Of a stretch of DNA of 64,000 bases, positions 21,445 to 37,740 are shown one piece after another; position 1 is the stretch's first letter; each line of letters opens with the position of its first letter. Location: positions 480,001 through 544,000 of the forward strand of contig CAXXVZ010000004.1 of NCBI GenBank assembly GCA_963678065.2, written 5' to 3'. Source of the DNA: Treponemataceae bacterium. Lineage in GTDB: Bacteria > Spirochaetota > Spirochaetia > Treponematales > Rectinemataceae. A program made the translations under genes and the position numbers. The notes beneath the pieces are model-generated. The model was not told the origin of the DNA and did no database searches. It was given only the letters and a program-made list of their open reading frames with translations.

Positions 21445-21511
21445 CCGCCACCTCTTCCGAACGTCTTCTTACGCTCTTTAGTATCGGCAGGACGGATGAC
21501 AGGCATGAATC

Positions 21512-22477
21512 CTATGTGGTCGGGGAGTTGACCGGGTTCAGGGCTTTATCTCCTTTCAGGACGCGGACAACCTCGTGGGCGGCCCGCCGTTTCAGCTCGA
21601 CGATGGATTTCTCGGAATACCAGGCCGCGTGAGGCGTCAGAATGACGGAATCGAGGCCGAGGAGGGGATTGTCCGGGCGAAGAGGCTCGGTCTCGAGCAC
21701 GTCGAGTCCCGCTCCCGCGATCCTTCCGGCCCGGAGGGCGCCGACGAGGGCCGACTCCTCCACGAGAGGGCCGCGCGCGGTATTCACGAGGAAAGTTCCG
21801 GGCCTCATCATGGCGAACTGCCTCTCGCCGAGGAGGCCGCGGCTACGCGCGTCGAGGAGGCAGTGCAGGCTGATAACCTCAGCCTGGGCGCAGAGCGTCT
21901 CGAGCTCGACCTTCTCGACGCCCAGCCGTCCCATGGCCTGTGCGTCGACATTCGGATCGGTGCCGATGAGCCTGAATCCGATGGGAGCCAGTTTGCGCGC
22001 GAGGCTCGAGCCGATCCTTCCGAGGCCGATGATGCCCGCCACCGTGTCCCGGGAATTGCGGATCGGCGCCGCGCGGGGATAATTGAAGTCGTCATCGCCT
22101 TTCGCCCTGTCGTAGCGGACGATTCCGCGCGTGAGGGCGAGGATGAGCGCCAGGGCGTGGTCGGACACTTCGTCGACGCAGTAATCCGGCACATTGCAGC
22201 AGAGGATGCCCTTTCGGGCCGCGTATTCCGTGTCGAGATTGTCGTAGCCGACGCCGTAGCGGACAATGATCCGGCAGCGCCTCATCGCGTCGATCACGCG
22301 GGGTCCGACCTTGTTGTGCTGGACAATGAGGGCGTCGGCATCGGCGACGAGGCCGGATATGTCATCCTCGGTCGGTACCCTGTGCGCGAGGACCTCGAAG
22401 CCCGCGGCCTCGAGGATTTCCCTCTCCTGGTCCACTCGGGGATGCTCGTAATGGCAGATCACGACTTTGGCATTCAT
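21512..22477 (-). CDS. D-isomer-specific 2-hydroxyacid dehydrogenase (CtBP-like)
   Basis: RYGVGYDN, GIIGLGRIG, NTARG, LDVLETEP, TPHAAW; start set at MNAKVV. Confidence 0.9.
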   Translation of the reverse strand: MNAKVVICHYEHPRVDQEREILEAAGFEVLAHRVPTEDDISGLVADADALIVQHNKVGPRVIDAMRRCRIIVRYGVGYDNLDTEYAARKGILCCNVPDYCVDEVSDHALALILALTRGIVRYDRAKGDDDFNYPRAAPIRNSRDTVAGIIGLGRIGSSLARKLAPIGFRLIGTDPNVDAQAMGRLGVEKVELETLCAQAEVISLHCLLDARSRGLLGERQFAMMRPGTFLVNTARGPLVEESALVGALRAGRIAGAGLDVLETEPLRPDNPLLGLDSVILTPHAAWYSEKSIVELKRRAAHEVVRVLKGDKALNPVNSPTT

Positions 22478-22728
22478 GGTTTTACTCCCGTTTTTTGTTC
22501 CCGCCCCCGTTCGCGCCCGCGGTGCCGTCACGCGCTGTGTCTGGCATGCATGCGCCGCGAAGGGCTCGCGATAGAAGTTGTAGCATCGACGACTTGTGTG
22601 TTCAAAAACAAAAGGCGCACCGTGCCGCGCGCCTTTCTGTCCAGTGGGGATTTGAACATGCACATTGTAGATCTATCATATTCACGAGCTTATTTCTACG
22701 GCATCCTTCATCAACGCTTCAGCGGTCA

Positions 22729-24132
22729 TCAGGCATTTTCATGTACCGGTATGCCATAGGGGCCGTCGGGAAGCCACGCGACGCGGGGTGCGGGAAGGCC
22801 GGCGCTCTGTCTGCGCTGGATCTCCAGTTCCACGGCCCGCTCGATGACCCGCGCCGCATCCTCGAGCGTCAGGTCCTTGCGCGGCTTTCCGTCCAGGAAG
22901 GCAATGCCGTCGAGGCCGGGAATGAGTTTCCAGTCTCCGTCGGAAAGCTGGGGGGCGAAGTAGACGAATCGCGCGAAAGGCAGCCTGCAAAAGAGCTTGC
23001 ACCACATCTGCACCTGCCACTGCTCCAGCACGAAAGGCCAGTCCGGACTCATGAGAAGCCGCTCGAAGGCCCCGACGCCCACCTGCTTCAGGAGGCCCAG
23101 CACCGTCCTGTAAGACGCCCCTCCGACAGGATCGGCGTCATGGTTGTCGGCGACCAGGATGCACAGGGCGCCTCCGGCCAGCATCGGCGCGATCGCGGTG
23201 CCGGTTTTCGCCGCCTGGTAGTGGTTGCGGCCCACGAACCCCGCGTGCGATACGACGATGTCGTATTCGCCGCTGAAGGGAATGCCCACGTAGGAGCGCA
23301 CCTTGGCTACCGCCGCCTCGTGGGCCGCCTCGAGCGCGCCTGCGAAGACGCCCGTGAGCCTGAACGAGTGATCCAGCGTCACGTTGACGATGAAATCGAC
23401 GCCGGCCATCCTGGCCGCGAACAGCGACTCTTCGTGGCAGGGATTTCCGGCCAGGTAAAGATCGCGCGTGCCGGGGTGGGCCATCATGGCCGCGCCATGG
23501 AAGACATAGGTGCTTTTTTTACCCACGATGCCGGGACAGACACTCTTGCGGCCGCCCGAGGCGCCGGCCATGAAGTGGCTCTCCACCAGTCCCGTCAGAA
23601 TCCGGAAATCCGCCTCCATGTACGCGCGGTTGACGAATACTTCGTTGCCCCGCTCCGTGCGCCCCAGGCGCACGAGATTTTCCTCATCTTCGCAGTCGTG
23701 GTTCAGCACCCGTATTCCGTTTTCGAAGACTTCCGGGTCGAGCATCGCGCGGAGTTCAGCCTCCGACATCGCGCGGTGCGTGCCTGTGCCCACCAGAACG
23801 GTGATGTCGCCGCGCGCGAATCCAGAATCCTCCAAGGCCCGTATGATGGGCATGAGGATGCCGGATTCGCCCCTGTACGGCACCGGGCGGGTGTTGTCGG
23901 AGACGACGACGACAGCGGTCGGCCGTTTTCCCGCGGCCGCCTGCCGCGCGGCGGTTTCCGCGGCCAGCGCGGCAAGAGGTCTGGATGCGATCGGCGCTTC
24001 GAGGGCGGCCGCAATCGCCGGGCCGGGATTGTCGAGCGCCCGGGGCGCCTTCATGGAGAGTACGTCTACTGGGCAGGAAAGCCGCGCGGTGACGGTGCGG
24101 CCGCCGGAAAAGGGAATCCGCAGTTCCGTCAC
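22729..24132 (-). CDS. LarA-family nickel-pincer-dependent 2-hydroxyacid racemase/epimerase
   Basis: SDNTRP, GTGTHR, ESHFMAGASGGRKS, VFH and YQAAK match the LarA Asp/Arg/His/His/Lys/His/Lys residue set. Confidence 0.85.
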   Translation of the reverse strand: MTELRIPFSGGRTVTARLSCPVDVLSMKAPRALDNPGPAIAAALEAPIASRPLAALAAETAARQAAAGKRPTAVVVVSDNTRPVPYRGESGILMPIIRALEDSGFARGDITVLVGTGTHRAMSEAELRAMLDPEVFENGIRVLNHDCEDEENLVRLGRTERGNEVFVNRAYMEADFRILTGLVESHFMAGASGGRKSVCPGIVGKKSTYVFHGAAMMAHPGTRDLYLAGNPCHEESLFAARMAGVDFIVNVTLDHSFRLTGVFAGALEAAHEAAVAKVRSYVGIPFSGEYDIVVSHAGFVGRNHYQAAKTGTAIAPMLAGGALCILVADNHDADPVGGASYRTVLGLLKQVGVGAFERLLMSPDWPFVLEQWQVQMWCKLFCRLPFARFVYFAPQLSDGDWKLIPGLDGIAFLDGKPRKDLTLEDAARVIERAVELEIQRRQSAGLPAPRVAWLPDGPYGIPVHENA

Positions 24133-25412
24133 GACAGGTTCCGGATTCCGGAGAAATCGCCGGAGGCGGCCGCCCTGAGGATGGGCTCCATGTATTCGTC
24201 GACCAGCGCGGCGGTCAGGGGCACCGGCATGTTTTTCAGCTTCATTTCGAGCTGTGGATCCTTGGCGGCGGCGAGCGCCTTCGCGATGTGCGCCTGCGTG
24301 AATCCGGGGAAGTCGGTGAGCTTCGTGGGCGCGCCGATGGCCTTCGCGAAGGCCACCATGCCGCGGGCTACGGCCTCTCCCAGCGCCCTTCCGGCCAGGG
24401 CTTCCCAGCCCGCGGCCATGTAGCCGTACTGGCTGAGAATCTCGCCCATCACGCGGGCCTGCCGCTCGATCCTGGGCGCGAAGAACACCAGGTAATAAGG
24501 ATTCATGACGCCGCAGGCCGTACCGTGCCCCGCGACATCGACGAGGGAAAAACTCGTCAGGTGCGCGCCCGAGGTTCCGCCCACCATGATCGCGTAGCCG
24601 CCCAGGTCGGTGGCCATGCCGATCGCTTCCCTGGCTTCCATGTCCGCGGGATCGGCGATGACACGGATGGCGTACTTCACCGCCAGCTCGACCGAGGCCC
24701 GGGCAATCCGCTCGGCCTTGTCCAAGGCGCTGCCCGAGACAGAGCAGAACACTTCGAAGGAGTGGGCGATGGCATCCAGGGCTCCGTCGATGGTGACGGC
24801 GCGAGGCATGGAGACCGTCACATCGTAGTCAAAGAGCGCCCGTGAGGGAACGATCGCCTCGTCGACGATGAGCTTCTTCTGTCCTGCGACCGGATCGGTG
24901 ATATTGGAATATTTGGTCAGATGCGCCCCCGAGCTGGCGCTGGTCTGCACGGCGATCATAGGAATCAACGCGGCGCCGGTCTCCCCGAGCGCCGCGCCCA
25001 CGAGTCCCGTGCCGAAATAGCTGTCAATTTCGCACGATTTCCGGCCCAGAGTCGCGAGCACATTCGCCGCCTTCACCGCGTCGATAGTCGAGCCGCCGCC
25101 GACCGCGACAATACAGTCCGGCTTGTGGTGCAGGAGGTATCCTTGCAGCCGGTACACATCCGCGCGCGGGGCGTTGGGACCCGCGTCGGGAGCGATCCTG
25201 CCGCCAGCGAGCGACACTCCGGCGGCCGAGAGCGAGGCGACTACCGCATCGGCCAGAGGTTTCATGTAGGTGGTATTGCAGACCACAAGCGCAGTCTTTC
25301 CGTACGCGGCGGCGATCGGCCCGATGCGCCCGAGGACGCCGCGGCCGAAGATATAGCGGTCGCCCTTCCACTCGGTGAGCAGGGTGCGGGATTCGTCAAA
25401 CAGTCTGTCCAT
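24129..25412 (-). CDS. Iron-containing alcohol dehydrogenase family protein
   Basis: AVGGGSTIDAVK, DAIAHSFE, AHLTSF..GHG metal ligands. Confidence 0.85.
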   Translation of the reverse strand: MDRLFDESRTLLTEWKGDRYIFGRGVLGRIGPIAAAYGKTALVVCNTTYMKPLADAVVASLSAAGVSLAGGRIAPDAGPNAPRADVYRLQGYLLHHKPDCIVAVGGGSTIDAVKAANVLATLGRKSCEIDSYFGTGLVGAALGETGAALIPMIAVQTSASSGAHLTKYSNITDPVAGQKKLIVDEAIVPSRALFDYDVTVSMPRAVTIDGALDAIAHSFEVFCSVSGSALDKAERIARASVELAVKYAIRVIADPADMEAREAIGMATDLGGYAIMVGGTSGAHLTSFSLVDVAGHGTACGVMNPYYLVFFAPRIERQARVMGEILSQYGYMAAGWEALAGRALGEAVARGMVAFAKAIGAPTKLTDFPGFTQAHIAKALAAAKDPQLEMKLKNMPVPLTAALVDEYMEPILRAAASGDFSGIRNLS

Positions 25413-25433
25413 CGTCGTTTCCTCGTTTATTTT

Positions 25434-26387
25434 TTATTGTCGCGCAAGCGCACGGCCTGCGGCGGATATAGCTTTCGCACTGATCCCGTACTTGTCAAGC
25501 AGGGCCTTGTAGGGCCCCGACTCGGTGAAGGTGTCGTGCAAACCGATGGCCGCCGCCTTCCACGCGCGGCTTGTTCCCGCGAAGCCGGATGCGGAGAGCC
25601 CTGTGAGGGCTTCGGCGCAGGCCGCGGCGAGGCCACCGGTGATGCTGCCTTCCTCCGCGGTGACGAGCCGTCCTGTCCTGGCCACCGAAGCGCCCAGAGT
25701 CGCCGCATCCAGCGGCTTCACGCTCGCCATGTCGAGCACCTCGGCGCCGATTCCCTCGGATGCGAGAATCTCCGCCGCCTCGAGCGCCTGGGCCACGCAG
25801 ATGCCGCAGGCGGCTATCGTCAGGTCATCGCCTGAACGGAAAATCCTGGCCTTGCCGAACTCGACCGGCTCCGGAGAAGGCACCGCGGGCAGCTCATTGC
25901 GGTTCAGACGGATGTACACCGGCCCGTCTGCCACGAGGGCGAGTTCCAGAGCCCGTTCGGCCGCGGCGTTGTCCGCAGGCACCAGCACGCGCATGGACGG
26001 CAGCGAGCGCATGATCGCCAGGTCGGCGATCGAGTGGTGGCTCGCGCCGTCGAAGGAATCGGAGAGGCCACCGTACGCGCCGGCGAGCACAACCGGAATC
26101 TCATTGTAACAAAGCACGTTGCGGATCTGGTCCGTCGCCTTCAGCGCGAGAAAGATCGCGAAGCTGTTCGCCACGGGCCTGTAGCCGCCCAGGGCCAATC
26201 CCGCCGCGACGTCGACCATGTTGGCCTCCGCCACGCCCACATTGAAAAACCGTTCGGGGAAGGCCTGCGCGAAATACGAAGATTTCGTGCTCGAGGAGAC
26301 ATCCGCGTCGAGGACGACGATCTTCGGATCGGCGTAGCCCATCGCCGCAAGTTTCTTCCCGAAAGCGTCGCGCATCGTCATGCCCAT
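25434..26387 (-). CDS. Transketolase-like protein, C-terminal (pyrimidine-binding) subunit
   Basis: MRDAFG, LDADV, FNVGVAEANMV, DGASHH, GPVYIRL, SVKPLD. Confidence 0.9.
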   Translation of the reverse strand: MGMTMRDAFGKKLAAMGYADPKIVVLDADVSSSTKSSYFAQAFPERFFNVGVAEANMVDVAAGLALGGYRPVANSFAIFLALKATDQIRNVLCYNEIPVVLAGAYGGLSDSFDGASHHSIADLAIMRSLPSMRVLVPADNAAAERALELALVADGPVYIRLNRNELPAVPSPEPVEFGKARIFRSGDDLTIAACGICVAQALEAAEILASEGIGAEVLDMASVKPLDAATLGASVARTGRLVTAEEGSITGGLAAACAEALTGLSASGFAGTSRAWKAAAIGLHDTFTESGPYKALLDKYGISAKAISAAGRALARQ

Positions 26388-26388
26388 A

Positions 26389-27306
26389 TCAGGCCCCCTT
26401 CCCGGCGGCGGCGAGCGCGGATTCATACGCGGCCCAGAGCTCGGGGCGCGCGCGCCGCCACGCCTCATCATCGATCGGAGCGCCGTGCCAGACATTCTTC
26501 CCTTCCATGAACGATACACCCTTTCCCTTGACCGTATCGTAGACTACGGCGCGCGGCCATGCGCCGGGGCCGTCCATCCACTCGAAGGAAGCGGCGATAT
26601 CGTCGACATCGTGCCCGTCATAACGGCGCGGCGCCACGTTCCAGCCGAAGGCGGAGAGCTTTGCCAGCAGAAAGCCGAGCGGCATGATCTGTTCCGCCGT
26701 GCCGTCGAGCTGCACGCCGTTGTTGTCCACCATGAGCACGAGGCGATCCGGCCTGAACTTGGCCGCCGCCATCAGCGCTTCCCACGACTGGCCCTCGTCG
26801 AGGCAGCCCTCCCCCACCATGACATAGGTCCAGGCGCCGGAGCCGGAAAGCCGAAAGGCCAGGGACATACCCAGCCCCACCGAAATCCCGTGCCCGAGGG
26901 CGCCCGTGGAAAGATCCACGCCCGGGGTCTTGTTCATGGCCGGGTGCCCCTGGAGCCGCGAATCGATATCGCGGAAGGTATCGAGCCATTCGAGGTCGAA
27001 GAAACCCCGGCTCGCCAGCACCGAATACAGCATGGGCGAGGCGTGGCCTTTGCTCAGGATGAAGCGGTCCCTGCCCGGCGCGCAGGGTTCGGCCGGATCG
27101 ATGTGCATCCTGTAGAAATAGAGCATCGATACAAGGTCAGCCGCAGACGAGGATCCGCCCCAGTGCCCCGTGCCCTTCGCGTGGAGCAGATCGATGATCC
27201 TGACTCTGATCCGCGCGGAAAGTGCCGCTATCAGGCGCCGTTTTCTCGCAGGATCCTTCTCGCCAAGCGCTTCGCTGGCGATCGATTTCATCTCATCCAT
27301 ACTCAT
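26389..27306 (-). CDS. Transketolase-like protein, N-terminal (ThDP-binding) subunit
   Basis: GHWGGS, DRFILSKGHA, LQGHP, STGALGHG, GEG..EG..WEA...DNN, TVKGKG, WHG; start overlaps the upstream stop (ATGA). Confidence 0.9.
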   Translation of the reverse strand: MSMDEMKSIASEALGEKDPARKRRLIAALSARIRVRIIDLLHAKGTGHWGGSSSAADLVSMLYFYRMHIDPAEPCAPGRDRFILSKGHASPMLYSVLASRGFFDLEWLDTFRDIDSRLQGHPAMNKTPGVDLSTGALGHGISVGLGMSLAFRLSGSGAWTYVMVGEGCLDEGQSWEALMAAAKFRPDRLVLMVDNNGVQLDGTAEQIMPLGFLLAKLSAFGWNVAPRRYDGHDVDDIAASFEWMDGPGAWPRAVVYDTVKGKGVSFMEGKNVWHGAPIDDEAWRRARPELWAAYESALAAAGKGA

Positions 27307-28181
27307 CCCCGATGGACCGCGCCGTCCCTCCCCATCGGGGGGAACGGTGATCCGAAGCATTCGTCCAACAGCATACGCACATGCCGAGCGCCGGAACGTG
27401 CGGCGGTGTCGGCGTCTGGACGCGGGAAAATCTCGAGGGTGATCCATCCGGAAAAGGCGGTATCCCTGAGCGCGGCGAGCGGCGAGCGGAAATCCATGTG
27501 CCCGCTCCCGGGGGCGTTGCGGTTCGAATCCGCGAAATGCAGGTATTTGATGCGCGACGCGTGGCGCCTCAAAGAATCGGTCGGATCCGCATCCTCGATA
27601 TTCATGTGGAACAGATCGGGCATGAGCCCCAAGGCGGAGAGCGCATGACGGTCGAGGAATTCCGCGGCCTCGTCGGTGGAGTTCAGGAAATCAGTCTCAT
27701 AGCGGTTGACCGGTTCGAGAAGAACCATGACGCCGAGTTCGCTTCCCCGCGCCGACAGCCTGCCGAGGATTTCCGCCACTCTCGCTTCCACTTCGGGGCG
27801 GGAGCCATTGGCCTCGACCGTTCCCCTGATCCTTCCCACGTTGATGAAGGCGCCGAATTCCGCGGCCACTTCGATCAAGCCCGCGAATCGCCGCTCCGCC
27901 TTGGCTCTCACTTCGGGGTCGGTCGATGCGAAGGAATCTCCCGCTTCGGCGAAAACCTGGCCCGTGGAGATCATCGGAACTTCGAGGCCTGTTTCAGAAA
28001 GAAGGCGCTTCAGATCGGCCATGTCGACTTGGGAACGATCGAGAAGGGCAAGCTCCACTCCGTCGTAGCCGAAATCGGCCGCCTTGCGCAGCGAGGAGGA
28101 GAAAGGCTCGCGGAAAACCACGAAGGCGCTGGGAAGCGCACGCTCCGGAGCCACGGCCAGCGCAATTCTCGGTGTTTTCAT
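27303..28181 (-). CDS. Sugar isomerase/epimerase, xylose-isomerase-like TIM barrel (IolO / tagatose-3-epimerase-like)
   Basis: GYDGVEL, LEPVNRYE, DLFHMNIE, HFADSNR, PGSGH, LE. Confidence 0.87.
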   Translation of the reverse strand: MKTPRIALAVAPERALPSAFVVFREPFSSSLRKAADFGYDGVELALLDRSQVDMADLKRLLSETGLEVPMISTGQVFAEAGDSFASTDPEVRAKAERRFAGLIEVAAEFGAFINVGRIRGTVEANGSRPEVEARVAEILGRLSARGSELGVMVLLEPVNRYETDFLNSTDEAAEFLDRHALSALGLMPDLFHMNIEDADPTDSLRRHASRIKYLHFADSNRNAPGSGHMDFRSPLAALRDTAFSGWITLEIFPRPDADTAARSGARHVRMLLDECFGSPFPPMGRDGAVHRG

Positions 28182-28345
28182 GCCTCTTCCTCCTTTGCGG
28201 CTATGGCGGCATGTGGCGCCAGCATGAGACCGGCCTCAAGGGCGAGCGAACTCGCCGGGCCCACACTCGCGATATCGGATGCCGTGCTGTGCGCACAGGT
28301 TGCGGTGGGCACCGAGAGGCCGAGCGGAACTACGATATATCGCAT
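28178..28345 (-). CDS. Possible 55-aa first ORF of the operon, function unknown
   Basis: AGAGGTGG RBS and ATG just after the predicted promoter; stop overlaps the epimerase start (ATGA); no recognisable domain. Confidence 0.3.
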   Translation of the reverse strand: MRYIVVPLGLSVPTATCAHSTASDIASVGPASSLALEAGLMLAPHAAIAAKEEEA

Positions 28346-28358
28346 GACCACCTCTATT

Positions 28359-28404
28359 GTATACAGTATACCATAACTATCCCATGAGATTCTCACTCTG
28401 TCAA
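28359..28404 (-). promoter_or_regulatory. Sigma70 promoter plus GntR/FadR-type operator of the epimerase-transketolase-larA operon
   Basis: Minus strand TTGACA-17 bp-GATAGT followed by GTATACTGTATAC (28359-28371). Confidence 0.7.
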
Positions 28405-28540
28405 CTTTTTCTGCAGCGCTCTCAGGCCGGAAGCGCAAAATGATAAAAGCTTCTGCTTCTATCAAATGGACAAATTGCCGAAGAAAACGGTGCGATTGCG
28501 GAGATTTTTTCATGAAAACGGTGGCGTGCTCTGCCGTTTA

Positions 28541-28550
28541 TTGTATACAA
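28541..28550. promoter_or_regulatory. GntR autoregulatory site
   Basis: Perfect palindrome TTGTATACAA 13 bp upstream of the gntR start. Confidence 0.6.
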
Positions 28551-28563
28551 TAATTGCACGACC

Positions 28564-29202
28564 ATGAAAAACCTACACATGACCATTGAACAGTCAAGTC
28601 TCTCCGACCAGGTATACGACGGGTTGAAAGGCCTCATCCTCTCAGGCTCCCTGGGGGGAGGGGAACATGTCCCCGAAGAGCAGCTCGCGGCACAATTCGG
28701 CGTCTCGCGCACACCCATACGCGAAGCGCTCAAGCGGCTTGCGGAATATGGCCTCATCGTCATCAAACCGCGCAGCAAGGTCACCGTCGCGGCCATCTCC
28801 AAGGACGAGGCCGTCCATATCGGCAGGGTTCGCCAGGCACTTGAGACACTGGCCTTTGAACTGCTGGCAGAGAAAGGGGATACTGAGACCTTCGCCGAAC
28901 TCGAGCGCGTTGCCGGAGCGTGCCAGGACGCGATGACCCGAGGCGATCGCGCGAAGGCCTTCGAGCTGGATACGGCCTTTCACCAGAAAATGATGGACCT
29001 CAGCGGCAATCCCACCCTCGCGGACATCTACAAACGCCTCGACAGCCGCATTCAGCTGCTGCGTCTACGCCAACACCTGACGCCCCAGGAGCTCCTTCCG
29101 TATATGGTGCATCATATACATCTCATCCGCTTCATGCGCACCGGAGATATCGAGAAGGCCAAGGACATAATCAGCCAGCACATATTCCACGATATCGACT
29201 GA
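28564..29202 (+). CDS. GntR-family (FadR/FCD) transcriptional regulator
   Basis: EEQLAAQFGVSRTPIREAL wHTH; FCD motifs D.AFH, GNPTL, HH. Confidence 0.93.
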   Translation: MKNLHMTIEQSSLSDQVYDGLKGLILSGSLGGGEHVPEEQLAAQFGVSRTPIREALKRLAEYGLIVIKPRSKVTVAAISKDEAVHIGRVRQALETLAFELLAEKGDTETFAELERVAGACQDAMTRGDRAKAFELDTAFHQKMMDLSGNPTLADIYKRLDSRIQLLRLRQHLTPQELLPYMVHHIHLIRFMRTGDIEKAKDIISQHIFHDID

Positions 29203-29212
29203 CCGGAGACTT

Positions 29213-30220
29213 TCAGTCGGGTCTGTACCCGGACATGTCCTGCACCCACTGTTCCACGAGCTGAAGGCCTTCGACAGAGTGCGCGAAATACGCATTCGGC
29301 TTTCGGCCCCAGAGCCCAATGTAGTCCACGATTGTCTCGCCCCTCGTGTATCTTCCGGAGGTTTCCACATCCATCGCCGCATGGATCGTACCGAACCACG
29401 AGGGATCGATGAGATAGGCTGTAGCGGTGAGATCATTGAGGCCGATCCCGCCCTTGCGTGTTGTTACCTGATCCCCAGCCTTGATGCTGCCTACTATGTT
29501 CCCTTTGGCGTCTTTTATGAGTTTGACGGCCTTCGTTCTGCGGAAATCCAGAATCTTGATAAGGAAATCGGTAACCTCGGTCTTTGACGCCCCGATCCTG
29601 TCCAGGTCCGCGACTGTCTGGGTAACGAGGTTGCACACATCCAAGCCAATCTGGACGACGGGAATGCCGGAATTGAATACGACATGCGCAGCCTCCGGAT
29701 CTACCGCCGCGTTGAAGCTTGCGCGAGGCGACTCGTTTCCGCTGACTTTGACCGCGCCGCCCATGAAAATGACTTGTGCGACATGGGACGCGAATTCCTT
29801 GTCCAGAAGCACGGCGAGGGCTACATTCGTAAGCGGCCCGAGGGCGAGAATGGTGACAGGCTCTTCGGATTCCTTCGCGATGCGGGCCATCTCCGCGGGA
29901 GCGTAGCCTTTCGCCTTTTTTGTCGTGGGCAAGGGTATGTCCGTATCGCCCAATCCATCCGCGCCGTGTATCCACTCGGCCTCTATGGGCTCCTTCACCA
30001 GGGGTCGGTACGCGCCGGCATAAACAGGGATGTCGGTGCGTCTGGCGACTTCGAGGACGCGCAGGGCGTTGATGACGCATTTGTCCACACCGACGTTGCC
30101 GTTGCTGATGGTCAGGGCTTTTATATCGAATTTGCCGGAAGCGATCGCCCAGAGGATCGACGCGGCGTCGTCGTCGCCGGGGTCCGTATCGATAATTACC
30201 GCTTTCTTGTGCATGTCCAC
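29213..30220 (-). CDS. Nucleoside hydrolase (IU-NH/Rih family), atypical active site
   Basis: DTDPGDDD Ca-binding motif, GN, IHGADG, LGPLTN, MGG; ASFN instead of AEFN and LND instead of LHD. Confidence 0.9.
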   Translation of the reverse strand: MDMHKKAVIIDTDPGDDDAASILWAIASGKFDIKALTISNGNVGVDKCVINALRVLEVARRTDIPVYAGAYRPLVKEPIEAEWIHGADGLGDTDIPLPTTKKAKGYAPAEMARIAKESEEPVTILALGPLTNVALAVLLDKEFASHVAQVIFMGGAVKVSGNESPRASFNAAVDPEAAHVVFNSGIPVVQIGLDVCNLVTQTVADLDRIGASKTEVTDFLIKILDFRRTKAVKLIKDAKGNIVGSIKAGDQVTTRKGGIGLNDLTATAYLIDPSWFGTIHAAMDVETSGRYTRGETIVDYIGLWGRKPNAYFAHSVEGLQLVEQWVQDMSGYRPD

Positions 30221-30222
30221 TC

Positions 30223-30711
30223 CTACTGAATTTCGCTCAGGGGCTTAAGCCACCGTTTCCCGGACAGATTGGTCTGTTCTATTTCGTTCAGCAGACCGAG
30301 GGAGATATCGTGTCTGCCGCCTTCGTAGGGCGTATCCAGCCAATTGGAGAGTATGTCCTGTGCTTCGAACAAACCTATGCAGCGTCCTCCGAAACACAGG
30401 ATATTCGACGCGTTGTGGGCCGATGTCATTTTTCCTTGATAGGACGTGGAGCAGAGCGCGGCCCGTACACCCGGATACTTGTTGGCGACTATGGACATCC
30501 CTATGCCGGTTGAACAGATGAGAATTCCGCGCTCGAAGGATGCTTCGGAAACGGCGGAAGCGACCATGGCCGCGTAATAGGGATAACGGACGATACTTTC
30601 GGAGTGGCAGCCGACATCCTCGACCTCATAGCCGCGCTTAAGCAGGAATTCTTTGAGGCCGGTCTTCAGACCAAAACCGCCGTGGTCGCAGCCGATTATG
30701 ATTTTCTTCAC
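30223..30711 (-). CDS. rpiB: Ribose-5-phosphate isomerase B family protein
   Basis: GCDHGG, ICSTGIGMSIVANK, HN, GGRH. Confidence 0.88.
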   Translation of the reverse strand: MKKIIIGCDHGGFGLKTGLKEFLLKRGYEVEDVGCHSESIVRYPYYAAMVASAVSEASFERGILICSTGIGMSIVANKYPGVRAALCSTSYQGKMTSAHNASNILCFGGRCIGLFEAQDILSNWLDTPYEGGRHDISLGLLNEIEQTNLSGKRWLKPLSEIQ

Positions 30712-30783
30712 GATCTCTCCTGAACCGCAACCTTCCTGACCGGCAGCACGGAGCTATGCCGGCCAAGAAGAGTGAGCTACCGC

Positions 30784-31836
30784 TTACCTCTTGAGCTGAT
30801 TCGCCTTGGTCCATTCGTCCAGATCCCTGGGATCCTTCGGCAGGACGATCTTGCCGGCGACAACGTCCTTGCGGACGGCGCTGACTATGTCCAGGATATC
30901 CTGCGGATACTTGATTTTGATCCCTTCGAGACTGACATCGCAGGCGCCGTCCTTGATTCCTTTCCGGACCGCGCCACCCTTCCAGGTGCCTTTGACCAAG
31001 GCTTCGATCTCCTGATACACGAAAACATCCGTCTTTTTCACCGAGGTGCAGAGGCTGAAGTTGGGGTCGGTCGTGCTCGGGCTGGTCGAGATGAAGTAGG
31101 CTTTCTGCTCTTTCGCGGCTTCGAGAAGGCCCAGGGCGCCGGCTCCGCAGTTGCCGGTTACGATATCGGCGCCGCGTTTGAAACCGGTAAGGGCGATTTC
31201 CTTGGCGGCGACCGGGTTCGAATAGGAACCGACAATCGTGTAGATGATCTGGACTGTCGGGTTGACATAGCGGGCACCGGCCATGAAGCCGGCGGCGCCG
31301 GCGCGGGAGGTCGGCGAATCCATTCCGCCGGCGTAGACGAGCACATTGGCGTCGTTGGACATCGGGAATATGGCCTTGTGTTTTCCCTGGGTCACGATGC
31401 CGGAGATGACGCCCGAGAGGAAGGCCTGTTCAGGGTCGATGGCCGCAACAGATGAAACGTTCTTTATGCCGCTCAGGGTCGTATCGACTATGGAGAAATT
31501 CTGGTCCGGGTAATCCTTCGCGAGATCTTCGACCGCATCGTTTGAATTGGAGCCCACATACATGACCAGGTCATATTTGTTGGCCTCGGTGTAGCTGCGC
31601 AGAGCCGATGCGACAGCGGCAAGATCCGAGGTATTGACCTGCGCATTGTCTACCTTGACGTTCAGCTCCTTGATCGCCTTCTTTACGCCGGAGAAGGCCT
31701 CGTCGTTGAAGCCATTGTCTCCGAGAAAACCTGTCACGACCGCGACATTGAAAGTCTTTGCGGCGGGCGCGGCAAAAACCGGGGCAAAGGAAATGACCGC
31801 GAGCGCACACGCGATGGAAACGACCATCCTTTTCAT
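30784..31836 (-). CDS. BMP/PnrA-family nucleoside-binding protein
   Basis: Signal peptide; LGDNGFND, GFMAGARYVNP, GADIV, TSVKK. Confidence 0.88.
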   Translation of the reverse strand: MKRMVVSIACALAVISFAPVFAAPAAKTFNVAVVTGFLGDNGFNDEAFSGVKKAIKELNVKVDNAQVNTSDLAAVASALRSYTEANKYDLVMYVGSNSNDAVEDLAKDYPDQNFSIVDTTLSGIKNVSSVAAIDPEQAFLSGVISGIVTQGKHKAIFPMSNDANVLVYAGGMDSPTSRAGAAGFMAGARYVNPTVQIIYTIVGSYSNPVAAKEIALTGFKRGADIVTGNCGAGALGLLEAAKEQKAYFISTSPSTTDPNFSLCTSVKKTDVFVYQEIEALVKGTWKGGAVRKGIKDGACDVSLEGIKIKYPQDILDIVSAVRKDVVAGKIVLPKDPRDLDEWTKANQLKR

Positions 31837-31923
31837 CTTGTCCTCCTGATTGTGTAGCGGGCTATAAGGTCCGCAAGGGTACCCGTAATCTCTGACGGAA
31901 CCGGCTATCTGCCGGCCCTGACT

Positions 31924-32733
31924 TTAGTCCAATTCCCCGATCTTCTGCATGAATTGCCTGACGGTTTCCGCGTCTACCGGATCGTTCATGTTGCCGCTCG
32001 GCTTTGTGCCGTAGCCAAAAATGCTGCCATCCGCGTCAGCGACGCAATCGACTGTTTTCAGGCTGATGCCGCTTCCCAGAATAACCGGTGTTTCGGGAAC
32101 AGCCTGGCGCACATGGCGAATCCTGTCGCGGTCCGGCGCCACGGCCGATTCAGCCCCGGACACGATGATGACATCAGCCATACCCCGTTCCACCATCTCG
32201 TGTGCAACCGTCGCCATGTCGCGTTGAACCAGGGGGCCGCCGTGCTTGCTGTAGATGTCAGAAAATATCAGGACACGCTCGGCCTGGATCATCCTGCGAT
32301 AGCGCATGGCCAGATGGGCCTCTCCATTGATCAAGCCCTGATCGGTAACCATGGTATCCGTGAGAATATTGAGGCGGATGAATTGGGCGTCCACTATCAT
32401 GGCGACGGCCAACGCGGCTTTCCATGAATTGCGCAGGATATTTATTCCAAGCGGCACGGAATATCGGCGCCGTATCTCCAGCGCAACCTGCGTCATGGCG
32501 GCGACTGTCTCCGGTTCGCAGGTAAAGGGATAGTAGGGGTAATCGCCGAGGTTTTCGACAATCAGGGCATTTATCCCGTTTTGAACCAGCGTCTGTGCAT
32601 CGATCAGGGCATGCTCTATGACCGCCGTCATACTGCCCCCATAATTTGGTGCCCCCGGAAGCGGAGGCAGATGAATCATGCCCAGGATAGGCCGTTTGGC
32701 AGCAAATATGTTCCGGAACTCATCTCTTTTCAT
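31924..32733 (-). CDS. BtpA/SgcQ family protein
   Basis: GMIHLPPLPGAP, VENLGDYP, GINILRN, DIYSKH, LGSG. Confidence 0.9.
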   Translation of the reverse strand: MKRDEFRNIFAAKRPILGMIHLPPLPGAPNYGGSMTAVIEHALIDAQTLVQNGINALIVENLGDYPYYPFTCEPETVAAMTQVALEIRRRYSVPLGINILRNSWKAALAVAMIVDAQFIRLNILTDTMVTDQGLINGEAHLAMRYRRMIQAERVLIFSDIYSKHGGPLVQRDMATVAHEMVERGMADVIIVSGAESAVAPDRDRIRHVRQAVPETPVILGSGISLKTVDCVADADGSIFGYGTKPSGNMNDPVDAETVRQFMQKIGELD

Positions 32734-33733
32734 TCTCTCTTTCCTCCTTGTATGAAACGATATCCTTGACCCACGTTTCCATCGCAGCCCTGGAGTCCAC
32801 CTCATACGCCCAGGCGGCATTCGGCTTGCGGCCCCACAAGCCCTTGAAATCGGCCACTGTCTGGCCGGGGCAAAGGCCGGTCGTATCGATATCTATATAC
32901 AAGTGCCGGACTTTGAACCAATCCGGATTGATGAGATACGCGGTCGCGGTCAGGTCGTTCAACCCGATCTCGCCGGGCTTGTCCGAGGCTTTCTGTTCGC
33001 CGATGATGTCGCCGCCTGCGTCGCGAATGGTCCTGACTGACTTTTCCCGGATATGCCTGAGCATACGGATGATGAAATCGGAGACGGGAGTGCCCGCCTG
33101 TCTGATTCTCTCCAGGTCCTCATCGGTCTGACGGACGCGATCGCAGACATCAAGCCCCAGCTGAACCACCGGAATCCCCGAGTTGTAGACAATCTTCGCG
33201 GCCTCGGGATCGATCGCCGGATTGAAGCTGGCAACCGGCGATTCATTGCCCGGCACCCGCACGGCGCCGCCCATGAAGAGAATGCGCTTCACATGGTTTT
33301 TGAGCTTTGCATCGAGCAGAATAGCGAGCGCGACATTCGTCAATGGCGCCAGCGCGAGGATGGTTATCGGTTCAGGAGATTCTTTCGCGATCCGGACAAT
33401 CTCCGCCGGCGCGAAGCCAGGCTGACACCGGATGCCCGGATCGGGGAATCCTGCGTCGCCGAGTCCATCCCGGCCGTGCACCCAGGCGGCATCCATGGGT
33501 TTCCGCAGGAAAGGCCGGAATCCTCCTTTGTAGACGGGGATGTCGGTCCTCTTGCAGGCGTCGAGAATTTTGAGGGCGTTGAGGGCGCACAGGTCGAGTC
33601 CGACATTGCCGTTGGCGATGGTGATGGCCTTGATGTCGAACCTTCCGTTTGTGATGACCCAAAAAAGGGATGCCGCGTCATCTACCCCGGGATCGGTATC
33701 GATGACGACCGCTTCTTTCATGATTTCATTCAT
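32720..33733 (-). CDS. Nucleoside hydrolase (IU-NH/Rih family), second paralogue, atypical active site
   Basis: DTDPGVDD, VHGRDG, LAPLTN; ASFN and LND substitutions; clearly similar to 29213-30220. Confidence 0.9.
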   Translation of the reverse strand: MNEIMKEAVVIDTDPGVDDAASLFWVITNGRFDIKAITIANGNVGLDLCALNALKILDACKRTDIPVYKGGFRPFLRKPMDAAWVHGRDGLGDAGFPDPGIRCQPGFAPAEIVRIAKESPEPITILALAPLTNVALAILLDAKLKNHVKRILFMGGAVRVPGNESPVASFNPAIDPEAAKIVYNSGIPVVQLGLDVCDRVRQTDEDLERIRQAGTPVSDFIIRMLRHIREKSVRTIRDAGGDIIGEQKASDKPGEIGLNDLTATAYLINPDWFKVRHLYIDIDTTGLCPGQTVADFKGLWGRKPNAAWAYEVDSRAAMETWVKDIVSYKEERENEKR

Positions 33734-33749
33734 GTGCAATTCCTGACCT

Positions 33750-34661
33750 TCAATCGTCGAAATGTTTGCCGACACCCGCCGGACCACGGACACCCTTGTA
33801 GTTCAGCATGGCGACAATCAAGGTAAATATGTACGGAACCATCATCAGGATCTGGCTCGGTGTGCCGATTCCCTGGAAGAGTGTCTGCAGGCTGTCGAAA
33901 AAGCCGAAGAACAGGCTCGAAATCGCCGCATAAAGCGGATTGCTGCGGCCGAGATCGGTTACGACCATGGCGACGTAGCCGCGGCCGGCTGTCATCTCGG
34001 TGATGAAGCGGTTCATGCGCACCAGGGAGAGGTATGCGCCTCCCATACCGCTGAACGCGCCACAGAGCAGTATCCCGATATATTTATACGCGACCGTATC
34101 GATTCCGACCGTATTGGCCGCTACCGGATTTTCACCCACCATGCGCATGCGCAGGCCGAAAACCGTGCGGTAGAGTATCAACCAACTGAGGAGCACGAGC
34201 GCGATGGCGATGTAGAAAAACAGGTTCTGCTCTGCGAGGATGGGCCCGATGAAAGGAATCCTGGCGAGCCATTCCGGATTACTCTTCGGCAGGGAGGGAA
34301 CTTCGGGAGAATAACCCGCCATCTTCCAGACGACTTTCAGGACAAGCGATCCCATCGCCAAGCCGAGCAGGTTGACGCACACGCTGCTCAATGTCCCGTT
34401 AACCCGGTGCGTTACGTGCAGGTAGGCATGAAGCAAGGAAATCAGCATCCCGCCAAGGACGGAACAGGCCACGCCGAACCACACATTCCCGGAGTAGTAG
34501 GAGCCGAGAGCGCCGCAGAATGCGCCGGTAATCATCATGCCTTCACAGCCGAAGGCCACTACCCCGCTCCGCACGGAGAAGCTCGCGCCAGTAGAGGCCA
34601 GCATGACGGGAACCGTCACGCGAAGCGTCGTCGATACGATCAGCGATATGGAAATATCCAT
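33750..34661 (-). CDS. Nucleoside (CUT2-type) ABC transporter permease
   Basis: EGMM, GLRMRMVGENP..A, AGRGY.A, PYIFT. Confidence 0.9.
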   Translation of the reverse strand: MDISISLIVSTTLRVTVPVMLASTGASFSVRSGVVAFGCEGMMITGAFCGALGSYYSGNVWFGVACSVLGGMLISLLHAYLHVTHRVNGTLSSVCVNLLGLAMGSLVLKVVWKMAGYSPEVPSLPKSNPEWLARIPFIGPILAEQNLFFYIAIALVLLSWLILYRTVFGLRMRMVGENPVAANTVGIDTVAYKYIGILLCGAFSGMGGAYLSLVRMNRFITEMTAGRGYVAMVVTDLGRSNPLYAAISSLFFGFFDSLQTLFQGIGTPSQILMMVPYIFTLIVAMLNYKGVRGPAGVGKHFDD

Positions 34662-34673
34662 GACTGAACCCTC

Positions 34674-35783
34674 CTATTCCGATTCGGTCATGCGCCCGGG
34701 TTCGGTGATTTTCCGGGCTTGACGCTTCTTCCCGATCCAGTCAGGCAGGAACATCACTATGCGTGGGGCGGTGATGGCGACTACGACCATAACCTGAATT
34801 ACTTTGACAAACTCAAACGGAATGGATGTTGTCCTGTTGACCTGCATGGCTCCGGCCTTGAGGATGCCGAACAGCAGTGAAGATAGAATAATTCCGACCG
34901 GGTTATAGGCCGCGAGGGCGGCCACGGAGATGCCTTCGAAGCCGTACCCGCTCGAGATGGGGTCCACATTGCGACCCAGGACGCCCAAGGTAATGTCCGC
35001 GCCGCCGATTCCGGCAATTGCGCCGCTGAGGAAAAAAGTCGCAAGGTATATCCAGGAAGAATTGATGCCGGCGACCTCGCCTGCCCGGCGATTCATGCCG
35101 GTAACCTTCATCTTGTATCCAAAAACAGTCCGCCTCTGGACAAAATAGACGATCACCGCGATCACGATGGCGATAATCAGCCCGTAGGTCAGCTGGGTCT
35201 TGGGAACGATCTTGGCAAGACGAGCGGTTTCAAGGATCCGCTTGGTCTGGGCGCTTGAGGCGTTTTCCGGCTTCAGCGGTCCGTTGCAGAGAAAGTTTAT
35301 GAAAAGTCCGATAATGCTATTGAGCATGATGCAGGTGATGGCCTCATGCGCGTTGAAACTGACCTTGAGAAAACCTGTCAGAAGGCCGACGAGGCCTCCT
35401 GCGATCGCGCCGGCCAGAATGGCTACCGCCAGGTGCGATATTCCCGGAAGGAAATTGACATAGGCGCCGACCAGGGCCGCGACAAGGCCACCAAGGAGGA
35501 GCTGCCCCTCGGCCCCGATGTTTATGATTCCAACCTTGAAGGTGATGGCGAAAGCCAGGCCGGTGAACAGCAGGGGAGTCGCTTCGCGCAGAGCAAGATA
35601 GAAGCCGTTCGGAGAACCCAGAGCTCCCTGGAAAATCAATCGATAGGTCTCAAGCGGCGAATAGCCGCTGATCGCGATGACAACGCCGCCGACAAAAAGG
35701 GAGAACAGCAGGGCGACGAGGGCCTGGACGATGGACTTCGTCATTTTCCTGAAACCGGTATTCACTTCATCACGCTTTTTCAT
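34674..35783 (-). CDS. Nucleoside (CUT2-type) ABC transporter permease
   Basis: TPLLFTGL, NIGAEGQ, IMLN, GYGFEGI.VAAL. Confidence 0.9.
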   Translation of the reverse strand: MKKRDEVNTGFRKMTKSIVQALVALLFSLFVGGVVIAISGYSPLETYRLIFQGALGSPNGFYLALREATPLLFTGLAFAITFKVGIINIGAEGQLLLGGLVAALVGAYVNFLPGISHLAVAILAGAIAGGLVGLLTGFLKVSFNAHEAITCIMLNSIIGLFINFLCNGPLKPENASSAQTKRILETARLAKIVPKTQLTYGLIIAIVIAVIVYFVQRRTVFGYKMKVTGMNRRAGEVAGINSSWIYLATFFLSGAIAGIGGADITLGVLGRNVDPISSGYGFEGISVAALAAYNPVGIILSSLLFGILKAGAMQVNRTTSIPFEFVKVIQVMVVVAITAPRIVMFLPDWIGKKRQARKITEPGRMTESE

Positions 35784-37305
35784 TGAGATGCCCCTTCGCG
35801 ACCGATACCGGATTCCCGGTCATCAAGAGTCCCAGTTCCGTTTTGGAGTAGGTATCCGGCAGGCACTCTGCCACGATGCGTCCTTCGAACATCACGATCA
35901 TCCGGTCGCTCAGGGTGCAGACCTCGTCGAGGTCGGCGGAGACCAACAGAACGGCCTTCCCTTGGTCGCGGAATTTCAGGATTTCCTGGTGGATGTACTC
36001 GATGGCGCTGACATCCAGTCCCCGGGTCGGGTGTGCAACGATCAAAACCTCAAGGTCCCGGCTCAAGGCCCGGGCCATCACTATTTTCTGCTGATTGCCT
36101 CCCGACAGGGACTTTGTCGCCGTGTCCCTGCCCGGTGCCTTTATATTGAACGCGCTTATGCAGCGATCGGCGTATTGATCGATATTCTTGCGCCTGAGCA
36201 GGCCATGACCGGAGATATCCGCGCTCTCATGATAGCCGAGAAACAGATTGTCCTTGACGCTCATCGGCAGCACCAAACCCATGGTTATGCGATCCTCAGG
36301 CACATGGCCGATTTTTTTCTTCAGGAAATCGTGCGCGTCTCCGCGCAAGGGTTCGCCGTCCAGACTCAGGTCCATCGAAGACGGTTTGACCAGGCCGGTA
36401 AGAGCCTCGAGCAGTTGAGTCTGCCCGTTGCCTTCCACGCCGGCAACGCCGAGGATCTCGCCGCGGCGTATCTCGAAGGCGATGTTTTTCAGCTTCTCGA
36501 TACCATGTTCTTTCATGCTGAGATTTTGCACGGCAAAGAGGGGTTCACCGATATTCTTCGAAGGACATCGCTTGTCCAGGTTGACGGAGCGCCCGACCAT
36601 GAGCGAGGAAAGTTCGTTCGTCGTTGAATGAGCCGGTGTGATGTCATCGCCGGTCACCCGGCCATTGCGCAAAACAACGACACGGTCTGCGATGGACATG
36701 GTCTCCCGGAGTTTGTGCGTTATGATGACAATGCTGGTCCCCTGCCCCTTCAGAACACGCAAGGTATCGAAGAGATCGCTCACTTCCTTGGGAGTCAGAA
36801 CCGCGGAAGGTTCGTCGAGTATGAGCACTTTGGCTTGCCGATAAAGGGCTTTGAGCACCTCGACCCTCTGGAGCTCGCCCACCGACAAGTTCCCGACAAG
36901 TGTGTTGGGGTCCAGGTTGAAGCGATAATGCTCTATCATGCGCCGGACATCGCCGGCAGCCTTCCGGCGGTCGACGAAAGGTCCTCTGTGCGGTTCGATA
37001 CCGACTATGATGTTATCGATGATGGAAAAAGCCGGCACCAGCATGAAATGCTGGTGTACCATGCAGATGCCAAGTTTTATCGCATCTTTCGGATCATGAA
37101 TCTGAACCGGCTTTTCATTATAGAAGATTTCTCCCTCGTCCGGATTGTACATGCCGTAAAGGATCTTCATCAGCGTTGTCTTTCCGGCTCCGTTTTCCCC
37201 GAGCAGGGAGAGGATCTCTCCCTGTCTGAGGTGAAAGCTGACATCATCGAGAGCCTTGATGCCGGGAAATGATTTGCTGATATGGGTCATCCTTACTACA
37301 TCCAT
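35770..37305 (-). CDS. Nucleoside/sugar ABC transporter ATP-binding protein (two NBDs)
   Basis: GENGAGKTT, MVHQHFMLV, LDEP, LSGGNQQK, PTRGLD. Confidence 0.95.
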   Translation of the reverse strand: MDVVRMTHISKSFPGIKALDDVSFHLRQGEILSLLGENGAGKTTLMKILYGMYNPDEGEIFYNEKPVQIHDPKDAIKLGICMVHQHFMLVPAFSIIDNIIVGIEPHRGPFVDRRKAAGDVRRMIEHYRFNLDPNTLVGNLSVGELQRVEVLKALYRQAKVLILDEPSAVLTPKEVSDLFDTLRVLKGQGTSIVIITHKLRETMSIADRVVVLRNGRVTGDDITPAHSTTNELSSLMVGRSVNLDKRCPSKNIGEPLFAVQNLSMKEHGIEKLKNIAFEIRRGEILGVAGVEGNGQTQLLEALTGLVKPSSMDLSLDGEPLRGDAHDFLKKKIGHVPEDRITMGLVLPMSVKDNLFLGYHESADISGHGLLRRKNIDQYADRCISAFNIKAPGRDTATKSLSGGNQQKIVMARALSRDLEVLIVAHPTRGLDVSAIEYIHQEILKFRDQGKAVLLVSADLDEVCTLSDRMIVMFEGRIVAECLPDTYSKTELGLLMTGNPVSVAKGHLNEKA

Positions 37306-37509
37306 CCGGAAACTCCTCGACCATGGCTATAGAGTGGCGATCAATCAAATCAAGCATGCCCGCTCAACAGGACACCTGGATCTTTCCTTAAAAACAGCAG
37401 TTGCCTTTCATCTGGTCGACGCGATCGATCCTTTGCTTCAGGCACACCCGGGATATGCGCAGGTCTTGTCCGCCTTGATACCTGTCATGACTTCAGGTCG
37501 ATTCGCGTC

Positions 37510-37549
37510 TTGTATACTGTATACTAAGATGGTTTTCCGGCCCTGTCAA
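37510..37549 (-). promoter_or_regulatory. Sigma70 promoter plus GntR-type operator of the nucleoside transporter operon
   Basis: Minus strand TTGACA-17 bp-TAGTAT overlapping GTATACAGTATAC (37512-37524). Confidence 0.75.
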
Positions 37550-37734: not shown

Positions 37735-37740
37735 AAATTA

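Follow-up and report, generated by a model that had tools for sequence, protein, structure and literature searches.

Two operons sharing a rare operator in a Treponemataceae bacterium encode a candidate kinase-free route for nucleoside 5′-carboxylic acids

What is broken down by a gene cluster that joins a nucleoside importer and two nucleoside hydrolases to a split transketolase (TK), and that has no kinase? The question is raised by positions 21512 to 37549 of a 64,000-nucleotide stretch (the window) of the genome of a Treponemataceae bacterium (G000; 5.27 Mb, 99.9% complete), taken from contig CAXXVZ010000004.1. Our answer, which we hold to be somewhat better than an even bet, is that the locus imports and degrades nucleoside 5′-carboxylic acids (riburonosyl-bases, e.g. 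9-riburonosyladenine) via a predicted kinase-free, two-operon route. Parts of this answer differ in strength: the substrate is very probably a ribosyl compound blocked at C5′, and the block is probably a carboxylate. The genes, residue changes, operator and co-occurrence are observations, from which we infer every reaction and the substrate. The system is real and recurrent, and apparently undescribed.

All 15 genes between 21512 and 37305 were intact and in the order first described (open reading frame listing and family scans), and none of the 15 encodes a kinase, phosphorylase or phosphomutase. The upper operon, on the minus strand with intergenic gaps of -14 to 87 bp, encodes a two-domain sugar/nucleoside-type ABC ATPase (35770-37305; assigned by family scans), two nucleoside-type BPD_transp_2 permeases (34674-35783 and 33750-34661; PF02653), nucleoside hydrolase 1 (NH1, 32720-33733), a BtpA/SgcQ-family barrel (31924-32733), a BMP/PnrA-family binding protein (30784-31836), an RpiB variant (30223-30711) and nucleoside hydrolase 2 (NH2, 29213-30214). 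The BMP protein has the SRAG motif and lacks the GVD aspartate that 3 of 4 paralogues in G000 have. The lower operon, also on the minus strand with gaps of -4 to 21 bp, encodes an AP_endonuc_2 TIM barrel resembling IolO/TM0416 (predicted keto-uronate C3-epimerase, 27303-28181), the N-terminal ThDP-binding TK subunit (TK-N, 26389-27306; PF00456), whose start overlaps the barrel stop by 4 bp, the C-terminal subunit (TK-C, 25434-26387), an iron-containing alcohol dehydrogenase (Fe-ADH) of an uncharacterised clade (predicted tartronate-semialdehyde reductase, 24129-25412; PF00465; best PDB match E 1e-28), and a LarA-family 2-hydroxyacid racemase/epimerase (predicted glycerate racemase, 22729-24132; PF09861; 252.7 bits against NF033504, cut-off 460). 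Between the operons, on the plus strand, lies gntR (28564-29202; GntR-FCD), convergent with NH2 and divergent from the lower operon. A co-directional D-2-hydroxyacid dehydrogenase gene (21512-22477, minus strand; PF00389/PF02826) begins 251 bp behind larA, and the interval holds a terminator-like hairpin (22610-22637, minus strand; 11-pair stem and T-run) and no operator. We therefore treated this gene as loosely attached; its direction is as originally predicted, and its membership of the operon is doubtful. The linkage of the locus genes is not an assembly join, because a 25.6-kb contig from a near-identical strain in another public run covers 20500-37767 unbroken, with 172 differing letters and 4 gaps.

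The 5.27-Mb genome holds exactly two copies of TGTATAC(A/T)GTATAC, where base composition predicts 0.02. The two putative GntR operators, at 28358-28371 and 37511-37524, each closely follow or overlap the -10 box in a promoter-like site with TTGACA and a 17-bp spacer, one per operon: the first just downstream of TTGACA-17-GATAGT (28404-28376, minus strand), the second overlapping the -10 box of TTGACA-17-TAGTAT (37549-37521, minus strand). A TTGTATACAA palindrome before gntR (28541-28550) likely serves autoregulation. The window regulator is an orthologue of the TK-module regulator found elsewhere (41-51% identity), and of 21 orthologous module loci, 20 had a TGTATACA-type core at the gntR-tkt interval position; four hydrolase loci with a GntR-FCD gene (L002, L172, L173 and L175) had one upstream of the importer. 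Conserved TGTATACA operators at target promoters, a feature of FCD-type GntR regulons, are thus found in the window. These findings suggest that the two operons are likely co-regulated via the predicted GntR operator. The original prediction had described two co-directional operons flanking gntR with the same operator, and had staked itself on their co-regulation; both promoters do share this rare site, which occurs nowhere else in the genome.

NH1 and NH2 are 57% identical and belong to the IU-NH family (PF01156, 258 and 274 bits; cut-off 34), and the hydrolase model had an ordinary group I fold (pLDDT 88.5, TM 0.86 to 3G5I). They share with the group I hydrolases (E. coli RihA/YbeK, RihB and RihC; C. 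fasciculata IU-NH) the fold, DxDxxxDD, Asn39, His82, Asn160, Asn168 and Asp242. They differ in both Glu166→Ser and His241→Asn, in the GLDVC motif and in a long insert before the Asp242 motif, and both scored below every NCBIfam Rih cut-off. Aligned with E. coli RihA, they read ASFN for AEFN and LND for xHD. From work on IU-NH, we take Glu166 to be the 5′-OH ligand, whose loss from both enzymes had been claimed at the outset, and His241 to be the leaving-group acid. Among the best 120 of 2462 homologues (E≤1e-40), Ser was present at 166 in 120, Asn at 241 in 119 and GLDxC in 119, and the calcium and ribose-diol ligands were retained. A wider Ser/Thr clade at ~40% identity extends to Bacillales, Actinomycetota and Chloroflexota. 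The core hydrolase was found in the cultured human-gut species Enterocloster bolteae and E. aldenensis. Searches of four genome sets did not recover it: the window's phylum (400 genomes), relatives (60) and the families of G450 (400) and G451 (150), with only 5-10 candidates scored per genome in some of them. The plasmid matches listed for the hydrolase and RpiB included no close relative from either subfamily, all being <60% identical; the best were annotated as RihA or RpiB.

The window RpiB belongs to its family (TIGR01120, 171.9 bits; cut-off 138.65; Cys66 and His99 invariant) and carries the motifs VRYP, CSTG and GRHxxS. It has Ser where C. thermocellum RpiB has the last Arg of GGRHxxR (Arg137→Ser), as originally reported, and a new Arg elsewhere; the loss was seen in 118 and the gain in 119 of 120 homologues. 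It lacks the complete Arg pair of GGRHxxR and DYP, which we take to be the phosphate-binding motifs: GRHxxR has become GRHxxS and DYP has become RYP. GRHxxS and VRYP occurred together in the window and in 11 of 11 aligned cluster copies, and another copy in G000 (C4:90820) retains both GGRHxxR and DYP. The variant was not found in 250 genomes of the phylum; it is common in Bacteroidota (source names Runella, Spirosoma, Larkinella and Salmonirosea; P0216, P0231, P0236, P0254 and P0291). In a DeoC variant found at related loci, GGxR has become GGxA and GxSS has become SxRE, and the housekeeping DeoC of G000 is intact. The last-strand loop of BtpA reads G(Y/F)G in 8 of 8 linked copies (GYG in the window), against GT, GT, GS and GQ in four controls. 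The residue roles assigned here in RpiB, DeoC and BtpA are our assumptions. The binding proteins (DctP) of the TRAP importers at 5 of 13 loci retain the KxRV Arg, which presumably binds acids. An MtnA-like protein carries RGSG and HCHSG in place of the RGAP and HCNAG of MtnA; in ribose-1,5-bisphosphate isomerase, according to an excerpt of PMC5789824, contacts to the 5-phosphate come from the corresponding backbone amides and Ser together with Lys240. The Lys240 equivalent appears to be absent from the MtnA-like protein. Taken together, the RpiB, DeoC, BtpA and MtnA-like pockets look like partly dismantled phosphate sites that would fit a smaller monoanion.

We compared 13 distinct core-hydrolase loci of >=10 kb, with overlapping duplicates dropped: that of the window, and others that came from two collection scans and from genome searches (37 and 201 genomes). 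The two scans used broad patterns, covered 4 of 64 parts of the collection and returned core hydrolases at 7 of 160 loci. The RpiB variant adjoined the core hydrolase at all 13 loci. The barrel and split TK lay within the locus at 7; a further 4 genomes (G449, G963, G1008 and G1058) carry TK-TK-FeADH-LarA-barrel elsewhere. Queries with the barrel and Fe-ADH in G968 (0.7 Mb), and with TK-N in G451 (1.9 Mb), did not detect the module. Importers were of the TRAP (5), nucleoside-type ABC (4) and SBP1-ABC (4) types. In a profile search, PfkB was found within 5 kb at 0 of 13 core, 0 of 25 distant Ser/Thr and 23 of 75 Glu-type loci; unlike the group I hydrolases, the Ser/Asn subfamily was never beside it. 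For Ser/Thr-type against ordinary loci (0/38 vs 23/75) Fisher's test gave p 3e-5, for kin that are not independent; this search superseded a cruder regex screen (0/31 vs 5/75). The co-occurrence on which the original prediction depended was thus borne out by the 7 loci, and a kinase-free, co-regulated route for a C5′ that is not phosphorylatable is supported by the RpiB linkage and PfkB counts. Its expectation of kinase-free partners throughout was borne out in part. Distant hydrolase relatives in Bacillales and Actinomycetota adjoin a DUF1537 kinase scoring above the OtnK (3-oxo-tetronate kinase) cut-off, along with a class II aldolase and Hyi- or GarR-like enzymes, and "kinase-free" is therefore not universal.

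In the proposed route, the BMP-ABC system would import the nucleoside acid and the two Ser/Asn hydrolases would release the base and D-riburonate. The RpiB variant would convert D-riburonate to D-ribuluronate, and the IolO-like barrel would invert C3 to give D-xyluluronate. D-xyluluronate has the D-threo geometry required by transketolase. The split TK would then pass a C2 unit on to an aldose phosphate, and Fe-ADH would reduce the remaining tartronate semialdehyde to glycerate. By Fischer bookkeeping the product would be L-glycerate, which would explain the racemase: LarA would turn it into D-glycerate to supply a glycerate kinase whose gene lies elsewhere in the genome. G000 carries a glycerate-kinase-family gene (DUF4147), and a glycerate kinase follows the module in 2 of 25 loci examined, both in hydrolase-bearing genomes (G449 and G963). 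An excerpt of PMC11770544 states that some LarA homologues racemise glycerate. The window LarA keeps the active-site motifs DxTRP, HR, HF..RK and HG. The roles of these residues are in part our assumption. The barrel is closest to IolO but falls under the cut-off (NF041099, 227.7 vs 300 bits), and its best PDB match is TM0416 (E 1e-42); the IolO/TM0416-type activity is that of a 5-keto-L-gluconate epimerase (PMC12632266, in excerpt). As judged from sequence, the TRAP importers, the barrel, the acid-sugar enzymes in variant loci and the remodelled RpiB, DeoC and MtnA-like pockets favour an anionic C5. Nucleoside oxidases form 9-riburonosyladenine. The compound is also named in an untargeted colostrum metabolome (excerpt of PMC11765268).

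Variant loci suggest other entries to the same module. In G1029 (L210:2140-10997), genes for a ComB phosphatase, the DeoC variant, a BMP-ABC system 47-54% identical to that of the window, an MTAP-like phosphorylase, an MtnA-family isomerase and DeoD come directly after the TK module, and there is no Ser/Asn hydrolase. By analogy, this set would be 1-phosphate chemistry used for a 5-substituted ribose, a phosphatase replacing the mutase. A blocked C5 is inferred at G1029 because ordinary ribose-1-phosphate would need a mutase alone; ComB would free C1 for transketolase. MTAP-like and DeoC-variant genes lie beside the hydrolase in G448 and G874; in G448 they are joined by ComB and a gene resembling uridine phosphorylase. 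Acting on 2-deoxyriburonate, the DeoC variant would yield acetaldehyde and the same C3 aldehyde. A deaminase-like amidohydrolase is also linked, as are MTAP-, UDP- and DeoD-like phosphorylases. An enolase-superfamily enzyme is added at 4 loci, and a second barrel (TIM2) and a 2-hydroxyacid dehydrogenase follow TK at 4 loci. TIM2 had no match in NCBIfam, PDB or an informative atlas cluster, and to call it a hydroxypyruvate-isomerase analogue is a guess. The DUF1537 kinase/aldolase set could yield dihydroxyacetone phosphate (DHAP) and glyoxylate from the same keto acid. A tentative extension, which we rate a little short of even, is an undescribed pathway family that recycles ribo- and 2′-deoxyribo-nucleoside 5′-carboxylates. 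Its members would be hydrolytic, phosphorolytic (MTAP-like, MtnA-like, ComB), deoxy (DeoC variant) or based on a kinase and an aldolase, and all would feed a widespread, unrecognised keto-uronate TK module of spirochaetes and gut Lachnospiraceae.

The TK module itself has a wider distribution. The TK-C of the window groups with those from Lachnospiraceae-type hydrolase operons and from the spirochaete module in a single clade (support 96/90), and the phosphate-site His is Tyr in 25 of 25. We examined 25 Fe-ADH loci, 5 from hydrolase-bearing genomes and 20 long-contig picks from 87 places listed; 21 had gntR and TK, 19 the barrel and 8 LarA. The TK module is a general, widespread sugar-acid unit that can optionally be supplied by the nucleoside operon, and the usual substrate of the module is possibly a six-carbon keto acid. 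Loci L185-L208 hold an orphan form, gntR divergent from tktN-tktC-FeADH-[larA]-iolO-like, mostly without nucleoside genes; neighbours of the orphan module include TctABC, GntP, PdxA, DUF362, an aldo-keto reductase and an Asp/Glu-racemase-like gene. G000 has at least 11 further split-TK C-subunits with diverse substrate-site motifs and 24 PfkB matches, a large repertoire of sugar pathways without assignment.

Several observations weigh against a dedicated nucleoside-acid route. In the spirochaete family of G449, a Fe-ADH orthologue was present in 78 of 201 genomes (about 39%) and the hydrolase in 5 of 201; the module therefore mostly serves another sugar acid. PdxA neighbours would fit the C4 product of a 5-keto-hexonate equally as well as a C3 product. 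LarA was found at only 8 of 21 module loci, and no LarB, LarC or LarE match over cut-off was found in G000, which leaves the racemase step without a visible cofactor source. These three proteins make the LarA cofactor (PMC11770544, in excerpt). LarE was also absent in 5 of 5 other LarA-module genomes tested (G449, G963, G1008, G1058 and G1029), and G000 has five LarA-family genes, yet no LarB, LarC or LarE match, which suggests that these spirochaete LarA proteins use a scavenged or different cofactor. The His→Tyr change in TK is weak evidence because 9 of 11 other TK-C paralogues in G000 also lack the His. The three ordinary hydrolases of G000 likewise have no adjacent PfkB, one DeoC variant (in G954) stands alone, the uridine-phosphorylase-like protein of G448 retains its N-terminal His, and the 2-hydroxyacid dehydrogenase of the window is probably transcribed separately. 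No invariant basic, carboxylate-binding residue unique to the 5′ pocket of the hydrolases was identified, and because His241→Asn removes the usual leaving-group acid, there is room for a non-nucleoside aglycone.

The closest competitor to the carboxylate keeps the same route with another oxyanion at C5′, either a sulfonate or sulfate, giving sulfolactaldehyde, dihydroxypropanesulfonate (DHPS) or sulfolactate as sulfoglycolysis does, or a phosphate, in which case nucleoside monophosphates (NMPs) would be salvaged directly to ribose-5-phosphate. TRAP DctP proteins also bind isethionate (8t9t was among the matches), ComB represents the 2-phosphosulfolactate phosphatase family, the MtnA-like pocket resembles a 5-phosphate site, and the Sulfo-TK pathway employs a split TK, an isomerase and a metal-dependent alcohol dehydrogenase (PMC12890257, in excerpt). 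However, no TauE/SqwE exporter, sulfoquinovose (SQ) hydrolase or sulfonate-specific enzyme was present in any cluster scanned. NMPs would require no more than the ordinary forms of RpiB, Rpe, TK and DeoC, yet the variants have lost phosphate ligands. Family chemistry, in part our assumption, makes the enolase-family, DUF1537 and glycerate-kinase partners a sign of a carboxylate, and we regard another oxyanion as unlikely.

Still less likely is a hydrolase substrate outside the N-nucleosides, for example an O-riburonoside or the lactone of a sugar acid (ribono- or erythrono-1,4-lactone), whose cleavage would feed pentonate/tetronate catabolism. The exchange of His241 in 119 of the best 120 homologues would suit such a substrate, as would the near-complete oxo-tetronate set beside actinobacterial and Bacillales relatives and the lack of pathway neighbours in most of the distant SAR202 homologues; rhizobial exopolysaccharide reviews are listed among the literature matches for riburon- terms. 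Set against this are an importer of the nucleoside BMP type, the linkage of MTAP-, UDP- and DeoD-like phosphorylases, the DeoC variant and the deaminase-like amidohydrolase, and the presence at many loci of >=2 hydrolase paralogues, as expected for different bases.

We consider a neutral blocked C5′ (5′-deoxyadenosine, methylthioadenosine (MTA) or another thioether), leading to lactaldehyde or alkylthio-lactaldehyde, to be improbable. It would account for the loss of the 5′-OH-binding Glu and for the MTAP- and MtnA-family genes in variants, and 5′-deoxyadenosine and MTA are by-products that we take to be abundant; but the TRAP importers, acid-specific partners and Arg gains in RpiB and DeoC speak against it, the MtnA pocket is polar rather than hydrophobic, and the locus genes include no aldehyde dehydrogenase to supply lactate to LarA. 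From the substrates listed in the original prediction, the 5′-carboxylate is therefore favoured and the neutral 5′-deoxy and thioether nucleosides are disfavoured. Least probable of all is a chance pairing of ordinary ribonucleoside salvage (ribokinase elsewhere) with a separate sugar-acid TK operon, for which the 24 PfkB matches in G000, the usual absence of nucleoside genes from the TK module and the differing GC content of the halves (nucleoside operon 0.54-0.58, TK operon 0.62-0.66) could be cited, and against which stand the 14-bp operator found solely at both promoters, the fusion of these genes into single operons at Lachnospiraceae-type loci with TKs of the window's clade (96/90), and the substitutions conserved across the hydrolase and RpiB subfamilies.

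The nucleoside-carboxylate route resembles several known systems in part. Sulfo-TK of Clostridium sp. MSTE9 (SqvD, SqwGH, SqwI, SqwF, SqwE) splits a sugar with an anionic terminus without a kinase, using a transketolase encoded by two genes, an isomerase and a metal-dependent alcohol dehydrogenase that acts on the aldehyde product (excerpt of PMC12890257). The window likewise has an adjacent two-subunit TK; its isomerase and metal-dependent alcohol dehydrogenase were compared with SqwI and SqwF by family only. SqwI presumably belongs to the RpiB family. Unlike Sulfo-TK, the window has no SqvD, sulfoquinovosidase, SqwE or SqwD/KL among its 15 genes, enters via a nucleoside importer and hydrolases rather than SQ, adds a C3-epimerase and LarA, and would use one TK round on a pentose. 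IolO/TM0416 and LguG, 5-keto-L-gluconate 4-epimerases that epimerise the carbon beside the ketone of a keto-aldonate, are the closest barrel matches, but the window has no inositol or L-gluconate genes, and TK rather than tagaturonate reductase follows the barrel. The DHAP shunt for 5′-deoxyadenosine and MTA (MTAP or Pfs with MtnK, MtnA, class II aldolase) also catabolises 5′-blocked nucleosides; G1029 uses MTAP- and MtnA-family enzymes, and the actinobacterial variants a kinase and class II aldolase. In contrast, kinase, phosphorylase, MtnA and aldolase are all missing from the window locus, and its TK is proposed to cleave an unphosphorylated ketose. The apiose AptAB transketolase and DUF1537 tetronate pathways need a kinase (an FGGY kinase for apiose) and have no nucleoside entry; the former shares a split TK with an RpiB-family isomerase, the latter the OtnK-like kinase and OtnC-like enzyme beside distant hydrolase relatives.

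Among open-licence PMC and bioRxiv texts, a scope with subscription papers and supplements outside it, we found no description of the route and, judged by titles and abstract starts, nothing on riburonic nucleoside catabolism or on a TK yielding tartronate semialdehyde. Nucleoside oxidase with carboxylic acid returned only a reference-list mention, and BtpA with SgcQ only a text unrelated by title. If true, the route would define a fate for damaged or oxidised nucleosides, a class without a catabolic route in the literature searched, and would extend transketolase action on unphosphorylated anionic sugars beyond sulfoquinovose. It would also give testable functions to three mis-annotated subfamilies, the Ser/Asn hydrolase, VRYP RpiB and SxRE DeoC. 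More speculatively, it could bear on microbial turnover of the 5′-carboxylate metabolites of nucleoside drugs. The TK module, with its Fe-ADH marker in about 39% of one spirochaete family, represents an orphan sugar-acid pathway.

A tRNA-Leu(CAG) gene lies directly upstream of the nucleoside operon, at window 37741-37824. A search for a duplicated tRNA-Leu 3′ end found none, and there is thus no evidence for an integrated island. Beyond the tRNA, window 37965-42424 encodes a glutamine synthetase, a second Fe-ADH and a 5′-nucleotidase-like lipoprotein (the last assigned by eye), and no 14-bp operator links these genes to the locus. On the other side, window 16376-21444 encodes an ODP/MBL-GGDEF-receiver protein and then a 1008-aa protein, judged by eye to be a repeat domain fused to a GT2 glycosyltransferase; both are unrelated to the pathway. 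Among the distant relatives, Ser/Thr hydrolases lie beside a DUF1537 kinase and class II aldolase at L037, L056, L125, L006 and L007. The actinobacterial loci of this set have a second, very divergent hydrolase without the GN..E motif and a ModA-like binding protein, and BtpA is duplicated in tandem at L007. Many SAR202/Dehalococcoidia genomes (L005-L030, L049, L085 and L086) carry a solitary Ser/Thr-Asn hydrolase with ASAN or ATAN, which at L086 lies beside a queuosine-salvage-family gene and an ABC permease.

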